Below, piece after piece: positions 8,311-39,771 of a stretch of 64,000 nt of DNA. A program made the translations under genes and the position numbers. The first letter of the stretch is position 1; each line of letters starts with the position of its first letter. Origin of the DNA: a phage; sequence record PZ357121.2; one strand, written 5' to 3'. The notes under the pieces are model-generated. The model saw nothing but the letters and a program-made list of their open reading frames with translations. It did no database searches and was not told the DNA's origin.

Positions 8311-9343
8311 CATGAGTCGCAAATTCATGCCCGTTTATATGAAACAACAAAATTTGGATAGTCCATAGATATGCAACGTTCTTTTATAGTGCTAGGATGA
8401 AAATTTAGCGCTTTAGCTGCTTCTATATAAGACGTATACTTAATACCGTCAACAACCACATATTCAGGAACTTTATGAATAGTAGTCTTAATACTCAAAA
8501 CAAGAGGATGAGTTTCGACTTCACTTTCAGTGCAATTTAAATATTCCGCTGCTTTTTTAAAACTTCTAAAAGTTTTATTTTTAAGCTTTATCGATACTTG
8601 TTTTTTACTTTTTCGACTATTGATATTATTTTGCACATGTTCCTTAGATCTTCCGTTTTTAGCATAATATTCAGCTACAGAAGATTTTATATTGTTTTTA
8701 TGAGATTCGGATAACACTTTACCCTTATGAGCATCTCTTAATTTTTGAATATGTTCTTCAGTATCCGGATGCTTATAAAACTTTTTACCGCCTATGGATT
8801 TATTTAAACATTTTTTGCTATAAAAATATTTACGTATGACCTCTTCTTCATGTTTTAATGCATCTTTATAACTATCAAATGTTTTTAAAATTATCCATTT
8901 AGTAGGTGTATCAGTTTTTAAGCGTTCATTTATATACTTAGATGACGTTGTGTAAGTTTTCCAGTTTGTGGGCTTGTTTTTAATTGTTCTAAATTTTTTA
9001 TAACCGATATAAATGTCACCATTAGAAAACTTAACTAAGTATGTAAATGCGTCTTTATCTTTTATTTTAGTACAACGTCTTTTTATCCATTTCATTGTTT
9101 CACCTCGTATTCATAAGATAATCTTATTTATACAAGATGACTGCTGCATGTCGCCATGCAGATTAGACTATATCTTCATCTTTCGATGCCGGCCGTTTCG
9201 AATAGCATTAGCTTCTATTCTACACCGCTACATTCATCACGGTTAGTCGTTAGGCATTTAGTTCAAAAGAACATTTAGCACGGGATTGTCTACTAGAGAG
9301 GTTCCCCGTTTAGACCGGTTTTACATGAGCCTGAATTAAATTA
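8311..9343 (-). mobile_element. group I self-splicing intron in nrdD (sunY-type), about 1033 nt, carrying a homing endonuclease ORF
   Basis: nrdD reading frame is interrupted; exon 1 ends ...TATGAGT followed by TAATTTAATTCAGG; conserved group I core GGTCTAAACGGGGAACCTCTCTAGTAGACAATCCCGTGCTAAAT at about 9255-9300; ORF sits 3' of the core; boundaries +/- a few nt. Confidence 0.8.
8325..9095 (-). CDS. I-TevII: intron-encoded GIY-YIG homing endonuclease, I-TevII-like
   Basis: 256 aa; N-terminal FTYLVKFSNGDIYIGYKK; NUMOD3-like repeats; C-terminal helix-turn-helix-like tail; GAGGTG before ATG at 9095. Confidence 0.75.
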   Translation of the reverse strand: MKWIKRRCTKIKDKDAFTYLVKFSNGDIYIGYKKFRTIKNKPTNWKTYTTSSKYINERLKTDTPTKWIILKTFDSYKDALKHEEEVIRKYFYSKKCLNKSIGGKKFYKHPDTEEHIQKLRDAHKGKVLSESHKNNIKSSVAEYYAKNGRSKEHVQNNINSRKSKKQVSIKLKNKTFRSFKKAAEYLNCTESEVETHPLVLSIKTTIHKVPEYVVVDGIKYTSYIEAAKALNFHPSTIKERCISMDYPNFVVSYKRA

Positions 9344-11924: not shown

Positions 11925-12281
11925 TTAACCCCGGAGTTTATTGAGCTCTTCATAATCAATCCAGGATTCTAGCCCTGACGGCAGGTCACATTCAATGTTC
12001 CACAGAAGCTCTTCAATGGCTTGCAGGCGATTATATTCTTCAACGGTAATGGTAACCATTGGTGTAACCGGTTCTGCCTTTTTAACCATCATGTCGTTCA
12101 TCAGGACGTAAAGGTCATCACGAACGACAGTGTCGTTCCAACCCCATGATTTGGCTTCGTAAGCTAATGATGAAGGGAGCACATTTAAAACTTCAATAAT
12201 AGTTGGAGCATCAGGACCAAGTTCATTGGCACAAACTTCGTATACATCTTGGAAATCTTTAAGATTTAATGAATATGTCAT
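11925..12281 (-). CDS. hypothetical acidic protein
   Basis: ORF track 118 aa. Confidence 0.5.
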   Translation of the reverse strand: MTYSLNLKDFQDVYEVCANELGPDAPTIIEVLNVLPSSLAYEAKSWGWNDTVVRDDLYVLMNDMMVKKAEPVTPMVTITVEEYNRLQAIEELLWNIECDLPSGLESWIDYEELNKLRG

Positions 12282-12300
12282 TTAAAATATTCTCGCAGTT
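12278..12300. repeat. 23-bp direct repeat, copy A (tcatttaaaatattctcgcagtt)
   Basis: identical to 12593-12615; spans stop of ORF 12300..12596 and start of ORF 11925..12281. Confidence 0.9.
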
Positions 12301-12596
12301 TATTGTTCTACACATGCACAGGAAACTTCGAAATCAGGACCGTCGTACTTCCAGTGATATTCACCAACAGGAATCCAGTCACCATGCTCGTTTTCTTCAT
12401 AGTCCTCAGGCTCAAGGCCAACGAATCGCCATTGGACACCGATGATTCTATTACCCATCATTACTCGAAATTCGCCCCATGGATTATCAATAGCATACTG
12501 AATATCGTTCTTAGCACGAGAACACATTTCTTGATATAACAAAGTTTCTAATTCGTCCTGGTCATAAGGGCCTGGGAAAGTTAAATCGATATTCAT
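12300..12596 (-). CDS. hypothetical protein, flanked by 23-bp direct repeats
   Basis: ORF track 98 aa. Confidence 0.5.
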   Translation of the reverse strand: MNIDLTFPGPYDQDELETLLYQEMCSRAKNDIQYAIDNPWGEFRVMMGNRIIGVQWRFVGLEPEDYEENEHGDWIPVGEYHWKYDGPDFEVSCACVEQ

Positions 12597-12615
12597 TTAA
12601 AATATTCTCGCAGTT
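12593..12615. repeat. 23-bp direct repeat, copy B (tcatttaaaatattctcgcagtt)
   Basis: encodes the last codons of nrdC (QLREYFK*) and overlaps the start of the next ORF. Confidence 0.9.
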
Positions 12616-12856
12616 GGTCAAATCCACCAATGTGACTTCCGTCAGGAGCAAACACTTGAGGCATCGTCAATCCAACATGTGTTTCACGTCCAAGCTTAGC
12701 CAGAAGCTCAGCAATTTTTTCTTCATCGAATACACCTTTTTCTGGCATAACATTAATGAATTCGAACGGCTGTTTCTTAACAGTCAGCAATCGTTTCGCA
12801 TTATCACAATAAATGCATTTATGAATAGTAGAGTCATACCCGTACACTTTAAACAT
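12593..12856 (-). CDS. nrdC: thioredoxin NrdC
   Basis: 87 aa from ATG at 12856 (MFKVYGYD); redox CIYC motif; ORF track start is 6 codons upstream. Confidence 0.85.
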   Translation of the reverse strand: MFKVYGYDSTIHKCIYCDNAKRLLTVKKQPFEFINVMPEKGVFDEEKIAELLAKLGRETHVGLTMPQVFAPDGSHIGGFDQLREYFK

Positions 12857-13262
12857 TATTTTTCCTTTCATCAATTAAATATGCAATGCCAAATACAATA
12901 CATGTAATAAAACCTGTGATACAGATAGAAACCAACAACACTGTACCAAAGAACCAAATCAAGTTATCTTTAGTAGTTTGTTTGATATCCATCTCACGAA
13001 TTTCTATAGCTATCGTATCACCTTTATTCAGAAGCGTATAAAACGATGGCGATACACGCCTGTCAAAAACTCGTCCTTGCTCATCTTTATAGACTGCAAT
13101 AAATTCTAATTTAGAATATTTTCCTGTAGATTGACCTGAGATTAGCTCTACTACCTCCACAGGAATTACTTTAGTTTCCATGTAAGTATTCTGGCTGTTC
13201 CAAATGAATGGAATGATGGCAAAAACTAAAGCTGCAATAAAGCAACGAAGGCTATATCTCAT
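12849..13262 (-). CDS. hypothetical membrane protein
   Basis: 137 aa; hydrophobic N- and C-terminal segments. Confidence 0.5.
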   Translation of the reverse strand: MRYSLRCFIAALVFAIIPFIWNSQNTYMETKVIPVEVVELISGQSTGKYSKLEFIAVYKDEQGRVFDRRVSPSFYTLLNKGDTIAIEIREMDIKQTTKDNLIWFFGTVLLVSICITGFITCIVFGIAYLIDERKNNV

Positions 13263-13567
13263 TATAATGTTCTCTCAAATTTGTGGAAGCATTTACGGCA
13301 TTTCAATTTCAAGTTATCAGTGGTCCAGTTAACCAGTTGGACTTGGATAGTTCCACATTCCGGACATGGATGTTTTGCTGCCGATTTGGCAGCATTTTCA
13401 CGTCGTTCAACCATTTTCATGATTTCGTTCCATGCCGGAGGAACGAACTCTTCTTCACTGTGGATTTTATCTCGCTGAACAAATTCAATCTTTGAACTAT
13501 CGTCAATAAACTTAACCAAGCCGTGATTAGTGCTCATATCAATATCCTCTAAAAGACGTAGTTTCAT
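13262..13567 (-). CDS. hypothetical zinc-ribbon protein
   Basis: 101 aa; CPEC...CRKC. Confidence 0.5.
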   Translation of the reverse strand: MKLRLLEDIDMSTNHGLVKFIDDSSKIEFVQRDKIHSEEEFVPPAWNEIMKMVERRENAAKSAAKHPCPECGTIQVQLVNWTTDNLKLKCRKCFHKFERTL

Positions 13568-14517
13568 TATAAAACCTCAATGGCATTTCGTAAACCGTCC
13601 GCTTTCGCATTCAGAGCTTTTAACGATTTAGTTTGTTCTGCAATCTGGGCTTCGACTTCTTTCAGACGAGATTTGAGATATTCGCGTTCTTCTCTTAAGT
13701 TATCAACTTTTTCTGCTTTAGGCTCTTTAATAGGCTTAGGCTTATACTCGTTAGGGTTCTTCAGCTTAATTTGAATACGAGAACTGAATAACATTGAACC
13801 GTTATCTTCGGTTTCATCATACATTTCTACCACGTCCATGATTCTTAACATCATGCGAAGTTTATAAGACAGCGAACGAATGGTTTTGTTGCGCTTATTA
13901 ATTTCTTCGGCTTTCATGGTACCGAGATTACGTGAGTAGTAATAAGGAACCTGGATATCAATTGTCAATGATGCGTTACCATTACCGGTTGGTTTGAATA
14001 CTGCAGTAACCCAATCTTTAACATGAACTTTATTTGTACGACCATCGCCGCCTGTGAATAATTTACGTGAATGTTTAAAAAGCATATTCACTTGGTTATT
14101 GAATTCACAAGCAAATTTATCGGCAAATTTAGTTTCAGGAATGGTAGATAACCAATCAGCCAAATGAGTCTTTTTAACATCGTTAATAATAGTAAATTCA
14201 ACTAAATCAGTTTTAGGTGTCACAGATTTAATAAAGCTCGGCTTCATAAAGTTTTTAATGTTATCACGAGCTACAGTAGAAGATAATAAACGAGAACGTT
14301 TGAACCATTGAAGCAGTGTCCCTAATGAATGAGAATACGCATTCTGAGTATCTTTACAGATATGATTTTCTTGGCCTGTGTATGTACCAAAATCGCGAAG
14401 AATACCACTTACTACAACTCGGTGTGGAACATCAAATCCTAATGAACCAGAAGCACGTTGGGCATGAACGTTAGCGATAAGACCTGCAAAATAATCAATG
14501 TAATGTGAACGTGTCAT
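13567..14517 (-). CDS. hypothetical 316-aa protein with C-terminal coiled coil
   Basis: ORF track; C-terminal heptad-like LREEREYLKSRLKEVEAQIAEQTKSLKALNAKADGLRNAIEVL; own promoter upstream. Confidence 0.55.
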   Translation of the reverse strand: MTRSHYIDYFAGLIANVHAQRASGSLGFDVPHRVVVSGILRDFGTYTGQENHICKDTQNAYSHSLGTLLQWFKRSRLLSSTVARDNIKNFMKPSFIKSVTPKTDLVEFTIINDVKKTHLADWLSTIPETKFADKFACEFNNQVNMLFKHSRKLFTGGDGRTNKVHVKDWVTAVFKPTGNGNASLTIDIQVPYYYSRNLGTMKAEEINKRNKTIRSLSYKLRMMLRIMDVVEMYDETEDNGSMLFSSRIQIKLKNPNEYKPKPIKEPKAEKVDNLREEREYLKSRLKEVEAQIAEQTKSLKALNAKADGLRNAIEVL

Positions 14518-14545
14518 AATATTTTCCTCTCGTTAAGATAGAAAG

Positions 14546-14575
14546 ATTATACTCCAACCGTCCTTGGTTGTAAAC
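14546..14575 (-). promoter_or_regulatory. early-type promoter with spacer hairpin (GTTTACAACCAAGGACGGTTGGAGTATAAT)
   Basis: near-identical core at 15539-15568 and 16599-16622. Confidence 0.55.
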
Positions 14576-14579
14576 TGAT

Positions 14580-15512
14580 TTATGATTTTAATGCATTCAT
14601 TGCGTTAAAAAGTTTAGAGTACTGCAACTGGAGCTTGGTAACTACTTGTTGAGCATCACGAAGCTTAGCTTGTGCTTTGTCAAGTTCAACAGACAGTTGG
14701 TCCACAGTGGCTTTGATTTGATTATAATAGTAATCTTCTGCAGGAAGAAGACCGTTAGAGATTTCCAGTTTAGACGACGGTGTGCCGTTAAACATAACAG
14801 GTTGTGCTGAAGCTGAATTAATCTTACCGATAGTCGGGGCGACAATAATTGACGCTTCGAACGTTGCATTTTCCTTTTTAAGATTTTTATAATATTCAGA
14901 GTCTTTGTGCCACCATGGCGCAGGAACCTTTTTACCAATAGATACACGAGCCTGGATAGCGATATGGCCCTTATTCTTGATAACGTCGATAATATTAAGC
15001 TCACGAGAATAAATTGCTTTAATCTGGTGAATATTATCACCTAACACTTCCAACGCTTGGTGGAATACACGAGCAACGTTATCATTCTTAGGTTTATACG
15101 TAAGAGTGAACTCGTTCTCACTGATAACCATGATTTCCAACTTATCGTAAGTATATTTCAAATGTTTCATGTTAATTGCTTGAGGACGAATACGAGAAGC
15201 AATGGCCATCAGATTGTTAAGGTTATTCCGGAACTGCTTAGCGAAATATTGTCCTTCACCACCAATACAAAAATTACGAAGTTTCTGTTTGGCTAATAAA
15301 CGGCTGAACTCACCATTTTTAATGAACTCTTTAACGGGGGTGTTAGTAACGCATTCAAATTGAGTAAACTTACGAGAAGTAATTCCATAATACGAACAGA
15401 TTTCCTCAATCTCTTCAGGAGTCTTTACAGGCATACGGATAGGATTAGGACCTGGGGTATATGCGTTCGAGGTAAATTCTTTGATAAGTTCTCTACGTGT
15501 AATAAAAGCCAT
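14580..15512 (-). CDS. hypothetical 310-aa protein with C-terminal coiled coil
   Basis: ORF track; C-terminal VDQLSVELDKAQAKLRDAQQVVTKLQLQYSKLFNAMNALKS. Confidence 0.55.
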   Translation of the reverse strand: MAFITRRELIKEFTSNAYTPGPNPIRMPVKTPEEIEEICSYYGITSRKFTQFECVTNTPVKEFIKNGEFSRLLAKQKLRNFCIGGEGQYFAKQFRNNLNNLMAIASRIRPQAINMKHLKYTYDKLEIMVISENEFTLTYKPKNDNVARVFHQALEVLGDNIHQIKAIYSRELNIIDVIKNKGHIAIQARVSIGKKVPAPWWHKDSEYYKNLKKENATFEASIIVAPTIGKINSASAQPVMFNGTPSSKLEISNGLLPAEDYYYNQIKATVDQLSVELDKAQAKLRDAQQVVTKLQLQYSKLFNAMNALKS

Positions 15513-15538
15513 TTTATATTCCTCATGTTGAAAAATTT

Positions 15539-15568
15539 ATTATACTCCAACCATCCTTGGTTGTACAT
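15539..15568 (-). promoter_or_regulatory. early-type promoter with spacer hairpin (TGTACAACCAAGGATGGTTGGAGTATAAT)
   Basis: paralogous to the element at 14546-14575. Confidence 0.55.
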
Positions 15569-16563
15569 CATTCCTTAAGAAGTTTTACTACCTGAATAAG
15601 ATTAGCTCGTTCTGTTTTATTTTTACCGTTTAAGCCTGCTAATCGTGAGATTTCATCGTCAGTCTGTTGAATAGTTACATTAAGTTCGTTAATCAAAGCT
15701 TCAAAGTATTTGATTTGCTCAGCATGTTTTGATTCAAATTTCTGAACTGGAATAACGTCTTGGTTTAGTTCATCAATAAGGTCTTTAAGAGCATCTTCTT
15801 GGTTGATATCATATTCAACTTCTTTTATTTCTTCAATGAGCTCGTCTTTATATCTAACGTCTTTTAGTCCTGGTGCTGGTCCTGAAATCTCTTCTTTAGG
15901 AGTACAAACATATCCAATACGGTATCCAATGCCGTCTCGCTTGATATCAACTTCGTCAATAAATCCACAATGTTTAAGACCAGAGCCGATTAGGTCAAAA
16001 TATCCTTGACGTCGTCCTTCAAACGTTACACGAACTACTAAGACAGTTTTACCTGCAACCTTTTGAAGCTCACATTTATAAAAGTCTGTTGAACCTGAAT
16101 AACGTGGATGAGTTTTAAAGTTCATCTGACGATCTAGGCCCATTTGTAAGCGTGCTGATACGGCCATAAAACGTGTTTGGTTCTCGTTAAGATGAGCAAC
16201 AATCCATTTCAAAGGCATTTTACACTGTTCACGACCGAACAAATCAGTATATCCTAGATTACGCAGAATGTTGTTAGAGTTAATCATCGACAGAACGTTA
16301 AGTTTATTCAGCGCGCTGAAGATTCCATCGGCCATTGATTTTCCGTAACCTTTACACGCTTTAATAAGCGCTCGCGGTAGATTAGTATAGATTTCAGACG
16401 GCATATGAAAATCAAATTTACTAGTCAGTAATTGATGAACTTGGATAGCAATTTGCTCATAATTAAGCGCTCTGCGATCATTATGGTCTTTAAACCACAC
16501 TTTAATCTGTGAAGCACATAAACCGTTAATTTCATGTTTTACCGCATCAGATGTAATGCTCAT
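15568..16563 (-). CDS. hypothetical 331-aa protein with C-terminal coiled coil
   Basis: ORF track; C-terminal QIKYFEALINELNVTIQQTDDEISRLAGLNGKNKTERANLIQVVKLLKE. Confidence 0.55.
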   Translation of the reverse strand: MSITSDAVKHEINGLCASQIKVWFKDHNDRRALNYEQIAIQVHQLLTSKFDFHMPSEIYTNLPRALIKACKGYGKSMADGIFSALNKLNVLSMINSNNILRNLGYTDLFGREQCKMPLKWIVAHLNENQTRFMAVSARLQMGLDRQMNFKTHPRYSGSTDFYKCELQKVAGKTVLVVRVTFEGRRQGYFDLIGSGLKHCGFIDEVDIKRDGIGYRIGYVCTPKEEISGPAPGLKDVRYKDELIEEIKEVEYDINQEDALKDLIDELNQDVIPVQKFESKHAEQIKYFEALINELNVTIQQTDDEISRLAGLNGKNKTERANLIQVVKLLKE

Positions 16564-16598
16564 AACTATTTCCTCAGATTGAATTGGAACTCAAAACC

Positions 16599-16622
16599 AT
16601 TATAACCCGTCCTTGGGTAAAG
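16599..16622 (-). promoter_or_regulatory. early-type promoter containing CCAAGGACGGGTTATAAT core
   Basis: third member of the CCAAGGA(C/T)GG promoter family. Confidence 0.45.
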
Positions 16623-16625
16623 CGT

Positions 16626-17153
16626 TTATGCGTGAACCGTCTTTAAACGTTCTTCAAATTTCCGAAGAGTACTAATACGTTCTGCTTTCTGTTTTGTATA
16701 GTTTGCAATACGTTCTGAAGTGAGAGCGTATCGTTCGTTTACTGTTTCTTTCATGAAGTCAGGGATTTCACGAGAAGCTTTAATTTCATCAAACTTATCG
16801 AGTACTGCCTGGTCTTCAGCGATTAAATTTTCGTACATCTCGATATCTTTCTTGATAAACTCGATATCTTCCTGGGTTACTTTGGATAAACGAGATGCTT
16901 TATCCTTTTTGTACTGCTCGTTAGTTTCACGAGACCAGAATAATGTACGTTTTTTGTTAGTGTTTTTGTAGACTTCCACAATTCCAACTGAATCGATGAT
17001 AGCAATCCAATTCCAGCGAGATTTGAAAATCTGACCTCCGTCCACGGTAATCTCGTTACCATAAGCAACGTCATTAAAGAACTTGCTTTGTGCTTCAGAT
17101 TTAAATTTACCGTCGTTATAATTTACCAGGTTGAAAATATCTTTAGCGTTCAT
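16626..17153 (-). CDS. hypothetical protein
   Basis: ORF track 175 aa; GGAGGT before ATG. Confidence 0.55.
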   Translation of the reverse strand: MNAKDIFNLVNYNDGKFKSEAQSKFFNDVAYGNEITVDGGQIFKSRWNWIAIIDSVGIVEVYKNTNKKRTLFWSRETNEQYKKDKASRLSKVTQEDIEFIKKDIEMYENLIAEDQAVLDKFDEIKASREIPDFMKETVNERYALTSERIANYTKQKAERISTLRKFEERLKTVHA

Positions 17154-17172
17154 GTTTTACCTCCAGTAGTTG

Positions 17173-17209
17173 ATAGGTCTATAATAACATAACCATAGAC
17201 CTTGTAAAC
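17173..17209 (-). promoter_or_regulatory. early-type promoter with -10 inside hairpin (arms AGGTCTAT/ATAGACCT)
   Basis: minus strand GTTTACAAGGTCTATGGTTATGTTATTATAGACCTATC. Confidence 0.5.
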
Positions 17210-17211
17210 AA

Positions 17212-17499
17212 CTAAAAGAAACTTTTTTCGGTATTTTTTCCACTGAACCAAACCGATTTCGGAATTTTCTGTAATTTTTCAGATTTAAGTTTCTCTTCCT
17301 GTTCTTTCTTATATGCATCCTTGTCGTACCGGAACAACTCTAGGGCATTCTTTTGTAGACGGTCTAAGGTAATTAAGGCTTTAGTTTTTCCTTTCAAGGA
17401 AGAGTCCTGGCGAACCTCCTCGCTATATTGCATCGTAGAACTAACCATACGATGAGCATAGAGTTCGACTGCGGCTTTAATTTTTTGCATAAAATCCAT
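17212..17499 (-). CDS. hypothetical protein
   Basis: ORF track 95 aa. Confidence 0.45.
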   Translation of the reverse strand: MDFMQKIKAAVELYAHRMVSSTMQYSEEVRQDSSLKGKTKALITLDRLQKNALELFRYDKDAYKKEQEEKLKSEKLQKIPKSVWFSGKNTEKSFF

Positions 17500-35439: not shown

Positions 35440-35486
35440 TATTATCCAATGAGAGCATTATACTCTGCTCTCAAGAGTTTGTAAAT
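35440..35486 (-). promoter_or_regulatory. early-type promoter with -10 between inverted arms GAGAGC/GCTCTC (copy 2 of ~50-bp repeat; compensatory change versus copy at 4041-4080)
   Basis: minus strand ATTTACAAACTCTTGAGAGCAGAGTATAATGCTCTCATTGGATAATAAA. Confidence 0.55.
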
Positions 35487-39732: not shown

Positions 39733-39771
39733 GATAGGACTACTATAACATAGTCCTATCATCATGTAAAC
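39733..39771 (-). promoter_or_regulatory. hairpin-embedded early promoter, family A copy
   Basis: plus strand gataggactactataacatagtcctatcatcatgtaaac. Confidence 0.6.

Follow-up and report, generated by a model that had tools for sequence, protein, structure and literature searches.

The 64,000-nucleotide stretch of phage DNA analyzed here (record PZ357121.2, referred to as the window) carries three related sites between positions 14,546 and 16,622, and we consider it likely that these are dispersed early promoter cassettes of the promoter-early stem-loop (PeSL) type, in which a promoter for host sigma-70 holds an internal stem-loop and has been shuffled by recombination. Three features of PeSLs were found. 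Early promoter sequence occurs with a stem-loop within or next to it, as seen in minimum free energy (MFE) folds and in covariation. The copies recur in hyperplastic regions, where they flank variable open reading frames (ORFs): there are three copies in the nrdC region, and the dexA-motB region of phage RB69 adds two. Finally, the copies have yielded ORF insertions, deletions or exchanges, as documented by a chimeric junction in Mosigvirus AV118 and by counts of related phage records.

A query of ~5 kb around the sites matched 148 phage genomes over its full length at 95-99% identity, all of them RB69-like T4-type myoviruses (Tevenvirinae, Mosigvirus) with vB_EcoM_JQD51 as the best match at 98.3%, and RB69 itself shares 93-98% amino-acid identity with the window across the proteins compared. 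By these matches the window is that of an RB69-like (Mosigvirus) T4-type phage, and the annotations of RB69 and T4 place the sites in the nrdC hyperplastic region. All genes from ~0.5 to 44 kb of the window lie on the minus strand, so the motif is to be read as the reverse complement of the plus-strand coordinates; the sequence-only reading that had first pointed to the sites gave plus-strand coordinates and overlooked the strand.

Copies 1 and 2 fit the T4/PST early consensus TTTACW-N17-TAYWAT and are predicted to be textbook T4-type early promoters. On the minus strand the copy 1 junction reads TAA-atcag-TTTACA-accaaggacggttggag-TATAAT-(28 nt)-ATG, beginning 5 nt past the stop codon of the 310-amino-acid (aa) gene and ending 28 nt before the ATG of the 316-aa ORF, and the copy 2 junction reads TGA-TGTACA-accaaggatggttggag-TATAAT-(26 nt)-ATG, with a -35 element that overlaps the TGA stop codon of the 331-aa gene and an end 26 nt before the ATG of the 310-aa ORF. 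The two copies are the best sigma-70-like sites within their 11-kb surroundings, matching 11 and 10 of 12 hexamer positions, and both have the -35 and -10 elements of a T4-type early promoter at the expected distance of 16-18 bp. They contain exact matches to the 22-mer CCAAGGAYGGTTGGAGTATAAT (14546-14567 and 15539-15560, minus strand; 0 expected in shuffles), to which no third match exists even with 3 mismatches allowed, and a repeat search extended this to a 27-nt direct repeat (14546-14572 and 15539-15565, 993 nt apart) with 26 of 27 positions identical (96%). The likeness stops at the promoter edges, and the region upstream of both copies, at the position of an UP element, is the preceding coding sequence. 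Each of the three sites is on the coding (minus) strand, at a distance of 26-42 nt from an ATG that is preceded by GAGG, and none of the three copies has TG at -15/-14 (extended -10), although TGGTATAAT is present in the T4, Dhakavirus and Gaprivervirus versions of copy 3. A published list of predicted RB69 early promoters, obtained with a hidden Markov model that took T4 early promoters as its seed (Nolan et al. 2006, PMC1524935, Additional file 3), has Pe:51019 and Pe:52042 directly upstream of nrdC.3 and nrdC.5, which by the RB69 coordinates are the orthologous sites of copies 1 and 2.

Copy 3 is different. Its junction, TAA-acgc-TTTACC-caaggacgggt-TATAAT-(42 nt)-ATG on the minus strand, shares with copies 1 and 2 only TTTAC, the 10-mer CCAAGGACGG and TATAAT, although the degenerate form of that 10-mer, CCAAGGAYGG, has just three matches in the 64 kb, one at each of the sites. 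Copy 3 lacks promoter elements at the T4-type distance, offering at best a 3/6 match to the -35 at 18 bp, and because its spacer is 11 bp and not 17, we read it as a partial copy that is not a canonical -35/-10 promoter in the window phage. The RB69 list likewise contains no early promoter between nrdC.8 and nrdC.6, where copy 3 would lie, and the next RB69 promoter upstream is Pe:53683, before nrdC.8 (PMC1524935). Copy 3 has no TGn, and no acceptable -35 lies at 16-18 bp; most probably, therefore, nrdC.8 and the 331-aa gene are transcribed as one unit from the strong predicted promoter at 17208-17181, whose hairpin folds with an MFE of -16.7 (z -2.5; z -4.4 in a separate folding). The sequence-only reading had proposed near-identical ~30-bp cores at all three sites, forming a second promoter family that gave each of the three genes its own promoter. 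Copies 1 and 2 bear out the near-identity and the family, as T4-type early promoters with predicted orthologues in RB69, but copy 3, with its 11-bp spacer and no usable -35, matches in part, and the proposal of one promoter for every gene is not supported.

A sign of modularity comes from AV118, in which nrdC.8 and nrdC.6 are followed by nrdC.3 and the nrdC.5-like gene is missing. Comparison of the AV118 record (L104, 4400-4540) with the window (14495-14650 and 15490-15640) revealed a single junction made of the copy 2 left flank up to the promoter and the copy 1 right flank after it, and because the flanks switch there, the crossover falls inside the shared 27 bp. Among the phage records found by megablast, the 331-aa gene is present in 154 and the 310-aa gene in 133 (in two identity classes), so that about 21 of 154 related records are without the latter. 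The 27-bp promoter repeat brackets exactly one gene, a relative of the counter-defense gene nrdC.5, which relatives of the window phage have lost by recombination within the repeat. A different deletion was seen in vB_EcoM_ACG-C40 (L105, 4730-5140), running from inside nrdC.5 to inside nrdC.3 and leaving 46 C-terminal nrdC.3 codons.

The genes flanked by the cassette vary among T4, RB69-like, Dhakavirus and Gaprivervirus phages. In T4 the hairpin-promoter stands before nrdC.7, nrdC.4 and nrdC.3 and was found before neither nrdC.6 nor nrdC.5, while in Tequatrovirus genomes closely related to T4 the same type precedes rIIA.1. Downstream of nrdC.8 the four genera share GCTTTA-hairpin-TATAATGGTT(C/T)T, past which homology to T4 ends because T4 has nrdC.7 there and not nrdC.6. 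RB69 carries two more cassette copies, at 8924 and 8364 in its dexA-motB region, which correspond to Pe:8947 (motB.1) and Pe:8387 (motB) of the published list (PMC1524935); in RB69 and a metagenomic relative the copy 1 sequence follows dexA, including 12-14 nt of the 5' untranslated region (UTR), and a CATCC/GGATG variant lies one gene beyond this copy-1-like cassette. The annotated order in RB69 is nrdC.8, nrdC.6, nrdC.5, nrdC.3, nrdC.2, nrdC.7, nrdC, and the window has nrdC.8, the 331-aa, 310-aa and 316-aa ORFs, then nrdC.2, a relocated nrdC.7 and nrdC, an order that differs from that of T4. The chimeric junction, the records without the 310-aa gene and the dexA-motB copies together uphold the earlier description of the sites as modular cassettes.

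Within the spacer, the three sites share a small hairpin, which each of the intergenic RNAs forms in its MFE fold: CAACC-AAGGAC-GGTTG at 14570-14555 in copy 1, CAACCA-AGGA-TGGTTG at 15563-15548 in copy 2 and ACCC-AAGGAC-GGGT at 16618-16605 in copy 3. The sequence-only reading had recognized this hairpin as CCAA...TTGG, which is correct as to its presence and makes the arms too short. Hairpins of this AAGGA-loop spacer type occur in the 64 kb at the three sites only. In relatives the element keeps its loop (AAGGA, or AGGA) and a -10 box within a few bases on the 3' side, and its arms differ and remain complementary (Table 1); stems measure 4-6 bp in the window and up to 8 bp in relatives. We assembled 14 distinct family members from Mosigvirus, Tequatrovirus, Dhakavirus and Gaprivervirus, paralogous sites included, in which the 6-pair helix is 89% paired compared with 60% in shuffles and the covariation score is 0.73 compared with 0.16, a value reached by 0 of 500 shuffles. 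Slid registers scored at most 0.12, and four pairs have changed on both sides. A pattern scan of IMG/VR, most hits of which are random, provided an internal check on stem complementarity, and the random matches mostly have just the two built-in pairs, without the extra stem pairs of the T4-like copies. Given the compensatory arms, the covariation scores and the confinement of such hairpins to the three sites, the spacer hairpin with its conserved AAGGA loop is, on this comparative evidence, under selection as a structure. We rejected the idea that a dimeric protein binds the DNA here, as arms that vary freely while staying complementary argue against a protein site in duplex DNA, and the shifting offset of the hairpin from the -10 box between copies argues against a fixed RNA polymerase contact. 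A MotA-box middle promoter was also rejected, there being no TGCTT.

Some members or look-alikes of the element depart from this pattern. The PnrdC.4 hairpin of slur04 (L103, 3384-3440) keeps its stem and has an AAGA loop, and one T4-like contig (L004, ~9990) combines a broken stem (TAGCT) with a degraded -10 (TACAAA). Outside the Tevenvirinae, the IMG/VR contigs L035 (4714-4742), L073 (1116-1142) and L064 (6565-6595) contain TTTAC, a hairpin with an AGGA loop and a 5-7-bp stem, and TATAAT, and the L035 site precedes a clamp-loader (gp44-like) gene of a more distant phage. Either distant kinship with the promoter-hairpin type or chance may account for these three sites.

Taken together, these observations are consistent with a mechanism in which copies 1 and 2 most likely fire immediately after infection, as their consensus and the RB69 predictions suggest, and would each give the downstream nrdC.3-like or nrdC.5-like gene its own early transcript. 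Copy 3 would be a spacing-defective variant that keeps the hairpin and -10 box only, with read-through from the nrdC.8 promoter as the probable main source of expression of the 331-aa nrdC.6-like gene. The cassette of ~27-45 bp doubles as a homology patch, since it is repeated in direct orientation, at which phage recombination can delete, insert or swap gene-plus-promoter modules; the AV118 junction, the differences in gene order from T4 and the dexA-motB copies all show such swapping. With arms that can change freely, the hairpin of 4-8 bp would have to work as a folded single strand, most likely in read-through RNA from the upstream gene, where it could weakly attenuate transcription, influence processing or stability, or expose a Shine-Dalgarno-like loop. 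Given the evidence for selection, hairpin function is an experimentally tractable question, and module exchange of this kind bears on host-range change in phages and on the engineering of therapeutic T4-like phages.

Several points weigh against the PeSL interpretation. The folding energy of the hairpins is indistinguishable from that of shuffles (z -0.9, -1.7 and +1.1 for copies 1, 2 and 3), which is insufficient to support them and made covariation necessary. The members of the covariation set share descent, so the shuffle control overstates the significance, a flaw from which the slid-register control is free. Stems of 5-6 bp are too weak to terminate transcription intrinsically, and the 'terminator' half of the PeSL definition probably does not hold here; a scan for intrinsic terminators found no terminator-like site at the three junctions, no T-run follows the stem, and a terminator function is accordingly doubtful. 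In the part of Comeau et al. drawn on here, the legend on PST/T4 PeSLs puts the stem-loops 'just upstream of' the promoter, and the window hairpins lie inside the spacer (PMC4122927). Finally, copy 3 is wrongly spaced yet conserved: its hairpin and -10-like box are kept at the junction downstream of nrdC.8 in four genera, which implies that hairpin plus -10 box have a role beyond a simple promoter model.

This last observation lends some weight to accounts in which structure comes before promoter. One holds that an RNA element is primary and the promoter resemblance secondary, the hairpin, with AAGGA (Shine-Dalgarno-like) or GGAU/GGAG (RegB-type) exposed, acting in polycistronic early mRNA made by read-through as a ribosome-binding or hand-over site, a site of processing by RegB or another RNase, or a stabilizer of the 3' end of the upstream cistron. 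The hairpin covaries while its offset from the -10 differs by several bp from copy to copy, it is maintained at the nrdC.8 junction with broken spacing in all four genera, and it always starts 4-14 nt past the stop codon of the upstream gene. Its AAGGA loop, nearly invariant, is complementary to the 3' end of 16S rRNA, and class-B copies have GGAG directly before TATAAT, imperfectly resembling the RegB consensus. Strong intergenic RegB sites follow GGAGRAYARAA, with a preference for an unpaired GGA and a constrained fourth base (PMC3014915); the GGAC loops of copies 1 and 3 are not RegB sites, however, GGAGUAUAAU fits just 5 of 7 flanking positions of the consensus, and the slur04 loop is AAGA. 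The hairpin also always accompanies a -10 box and mostly a T4-type -35 at exactly 17 bp, which an RNA element would not need, its stability is low, and an Rfam scan of 13400-17400 at E<=1 gave no match. We therefore regard this account as quite unlikely. A stricter version, in which the conserved unit is not a promoter at all but a structured element, an AAGGA-loop hairpin upstream of the -10 that acts on read-through early mRNA, appears decidedly improbable. If true, terminating ribosomes might meet a Shine-Dalgarno-like loop, or RegB/S1 a GGA(U/G) site, and the element would in this way insulate or couple neighboring counter-defense gene cassettes, and would account for the upkeep of the hairpin at the nrdC.8 junction in four genera despite the broken -35/-10 spacing.

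The array could instead be the relic of a tandem duplication, with the three genes as diverged paralogues of one gene-plus-promoter unit and the promoter as a merely conserved remnant, a possible explanation that we find on balance unlikely. Locally built profiles of NrdC.3/4 and NrdC.5 aligned with 89% probability (E 2e-6, 164 co-linear columns), which suggests that these families are remote paralogues, and the 316-aa protein of the window weakly matches T4 NrdC.4. Both AlphaFold models show the order helical N-terminus, beta/alpha/beta core, disordered linker and long C-terminal helix, and heptad-periodic helices end all three proteins. The NrdC.3-NrdC.5 signal was lost with narrower alignments, however, and profile comparison found no significant relation of NrdC.6 to the other families (E 0.015-0.026). 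Promoters identical at 26 of 27 positions precede proteins without BLASTP similarity, a mismatch that calls for gene conversion or recent exchange and not for ancient duplication alone. The cassette together with 12-14 nt of 5' UTR also stands beside unrelated genes (motB.1 and motB in RB69, rIIA.1 in Tequatrovirus close to T4), and the AV118 junction represents present-day recombination within the repeat. Duplication may still have seeded part of the array. That the resemblance arose by chance, or reflects the general T4 early-promoter consensus without any distinct family, is scarcely credible. T4 early promoters do share an extended consensus past the hexamers (PMC2988021), and sigma-70-like matches in this AT-rich region do not exceed the number in shuffles (40 found, 38 expected). 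Not one of 100 shuffles contained even a single 22-mer match, however, and this result, the restriction of CCAAGGAYGG to the three sites, the scarcity of extra stem pairs in random IMG/VR matches and the covariation refute it; other early promoters of the window, moreover, differ in their spacers and in their hairpin, which is much stronger and straddles the -10.

Table 1. Predicted promoter cassettes and ORFs of the window, and hairpin arms of related elements in other phages
Feature	Position	Strand	Sequence elements	Assignment or occurrence
Copy 1, predicted early promoter cassette	14546..14574	minus	TTTACA-accaaggacggttggag-TATAAT, 17-bp spacer	
Copy 2, predicted early promoter cassette	15539..15567	minus	TGTACA-accaaggatggttggag-TATAAT, 17-bp spacer	
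Copy 3, short variant	16599..16621	minus	TTTACC-caaggacgggt-TATAAT, 11-bp spacer	
nrdC.8 early promoter (predicted)	17181..17208	minus	TTTACA-N16-TATTAT in 11-bp-stem hairpin straddling -10	'first' family
'First'-family early promoters (predicted)	39770-39742, 32678-32650, 31383-31355, 21394-21366, 4379-4351, 17208-17181	minus	TTTACA-N17-TATAGT/TATTAT	
316-aa ORF	13567..14517	minus		RB69 nrdC.3 orthologue; 57% to T4 NrdC.3; PF26897 (precomputed); PHROG 1435, function unknown
310-aa ORF	14580..15512	minus		RB69 nrdC.5 orthologue; DUF7235/PF23882; 24% to T4 NrdC.5
331-aa ORF	15568..16563	minus		RB69 nrdC.6 orthologue; 29% to T4 NrdC.6; PF26899 (precomputed)
175-aa ORF	16626-17153			NrdC.8, 83% to T4
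Related hairpin			AGCCA/TGGCT	T4 PnrdC.3
Related hairpin			CCACA/TGTGG	T4 PnrdC.4
Related hairpin			ACCACA/TGTGGT	rIIA.1 promoter, Tequatrovirus genomes closely related to T4
Related hairpins			ATACCA/TGGTAT, TATCA/TGATA	nrdC.8 junction; Tequatrovirus, Dhakavirus, Gaprivervirus and one related metagenomic contig
Related hairpin			CATCC/GGATG	Dhakavirus
Related hairpin			CTTCCA/TGGAGG	Gaprivervirus

The three ORFs downstream of the sites have the sizes and adjacency that had been ascribed to them, and the coiled-coil tails proposed for their products are plausible. By a crude heptad score, which 1-5 of 200 shuffles equalled, all three proteins have C-terminal segments that are heptad-periodic, free of Pro and Gly and hydrophobic at a/d positions (281-309 in the 331-aa protein), and the same score found no such segment in NrdC.8. 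AlphaFold2, run on shallow alignments, placed long C-terminal helices at 275-315 of the 316-aa protein and 258-309 of the 310-aa protein; the models are poor (predicted local distance difference test 55 and 38, respectively), and only the secondary-structure pattern is used here. As to function, Pfam, PHROGs and NCBIfam return only families of unknown function or domains of unknown function (DUFs) for the three proteins, sequence searches of the Protein Data Bank gave nothing credible, and searches for homologous proteins found close relatives only. T4 nrdC.5 restores infection of cells carrying the Dsr1 sirtuin defense (PMC9391042), and the nrdC region is on that account at least partly an island of counter-defense genes; the 310-aa protein and T4 NrdC.5 belong to the same Pfam family at 24% identity. 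In the three 5' UTRs (14518-14545, 15513-15538 and 16564-16598, minus strand), the GAGGAA Shine-Dalgarno sequence is paired in MFE folds with a stretch rich in U and C, as in AUUUUUCA...UGAGGAAU of copy 2, and this predicted pairing may sequester the Shine-Dalgarno sequence.

Elsewhere in the region, an nrdC.7 homologue (12849-13262, minus strand; 137 aa, 41% to T4 nrdC.7 at L002 6902-7303) lies between nrdC.2 and nrdC in the window phage and RB69 and directly after nrdC.8 in T4, and the window lacks nrdC.4 and nrdC.1. Two adjacent small ORFs beside nrdC (118 and 98 aa) are preceded by identical copies of the 22-nt translation-initiation region AACTGCGAGAATATTTTAAATG, at 12279-12300 and 12594-12615 on the minus strand, where 0 are expected by chance; a local duplication or another recombination patch is possible. 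Ahead of the nrdC.10 promoter, and close behind a stop codon, the minus strand holds the hairpin GGGACC-UUCG-GGUCCC (18731-18716), adjoining a terminator-like GGTCCC...GGGGG and T-rich site at 18721-18705. C(UUCG)G tetraloops are of an extra-stable type first noticed in intercistronic regions of T4. Most strong early promoters of the window belong to what may be called the first family, with a large hairpin whose 5' arm lies in the spacer and whose 3' arm lies just past the -10. Their stems are 10-12 bp long (GATAGGACTA...TAGTCCTATC at 39770, 32678, 31383 and 21394, for example) and fold with z-scores of -4 to -6, and the -10 box is covered by the loop and the 3' arm. The second family, that of the three sites, differs in having a small hairpin wholly within the spacer. 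Promoters at 35485 and 4079 have another stem with compensatory changes (TGAGAGC/GCTCTCA in place of GAGAGA/TCTCTC).

Among known systems, the sites invite comparison with the classical T4 early promoters reportedly described by Liebig and Ruger in 1989. They share with these the GTTTAC-type -35, the TATAAT -10 and the location directly upstream of early genes, and would be read by the unmodified host sigma-70 RNA polymerase; copies 1 and 2 differ in lacking TGn, and the conserved spacer hairpin lies outside the described T4 early consensus (review by Hinton 2010, PMC2988021). Nolan et al. 2006 treated the RB69 sites as ordinary early promoters and did not single out a spacer hairpin or a sub-family. 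The closer parallel is with PeSLs, for which the portions of the literature used here describe the excision of ORF cassettes by recombination between copies (Arbiol et al. 2010, PMC2839356), an extension to T4/PST with the promoter consensus to which copies 1 and 2 conform (Comeau et al. 2014, PMC4122927), and a concentration in hyperplastic regions, where recombination deletes, inserts or replaces ORFs and can free mini-circles (both papers). As described in those portions, PeSLs resemble our sites in their hyperplastic setting, in their position between two ORFs, right behind the stop codon of the first and ahead of the Shine-Dalgarno sequence and ATG of the second, and in the flanking of accessory ORFs by repeated copies that mediate deletion, insertion or exchange. 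There are differences within the same limits: RB49 PeSL stems are GC-rich and were shown to be an 'effective terminator', and the PST/T4 stem is described as AGNA-loop-TCNT, whereas the window stems are short, AT/GC-mixed, too weak for such termination and built around a conserved AAGGA loop. The three sites thus match a published type and the substance of our interpretation has already appeared in print; what the present analysis would add, a modest advance, is covariation evidence for a subfamily defined by the AAGGA-loop hairpin.

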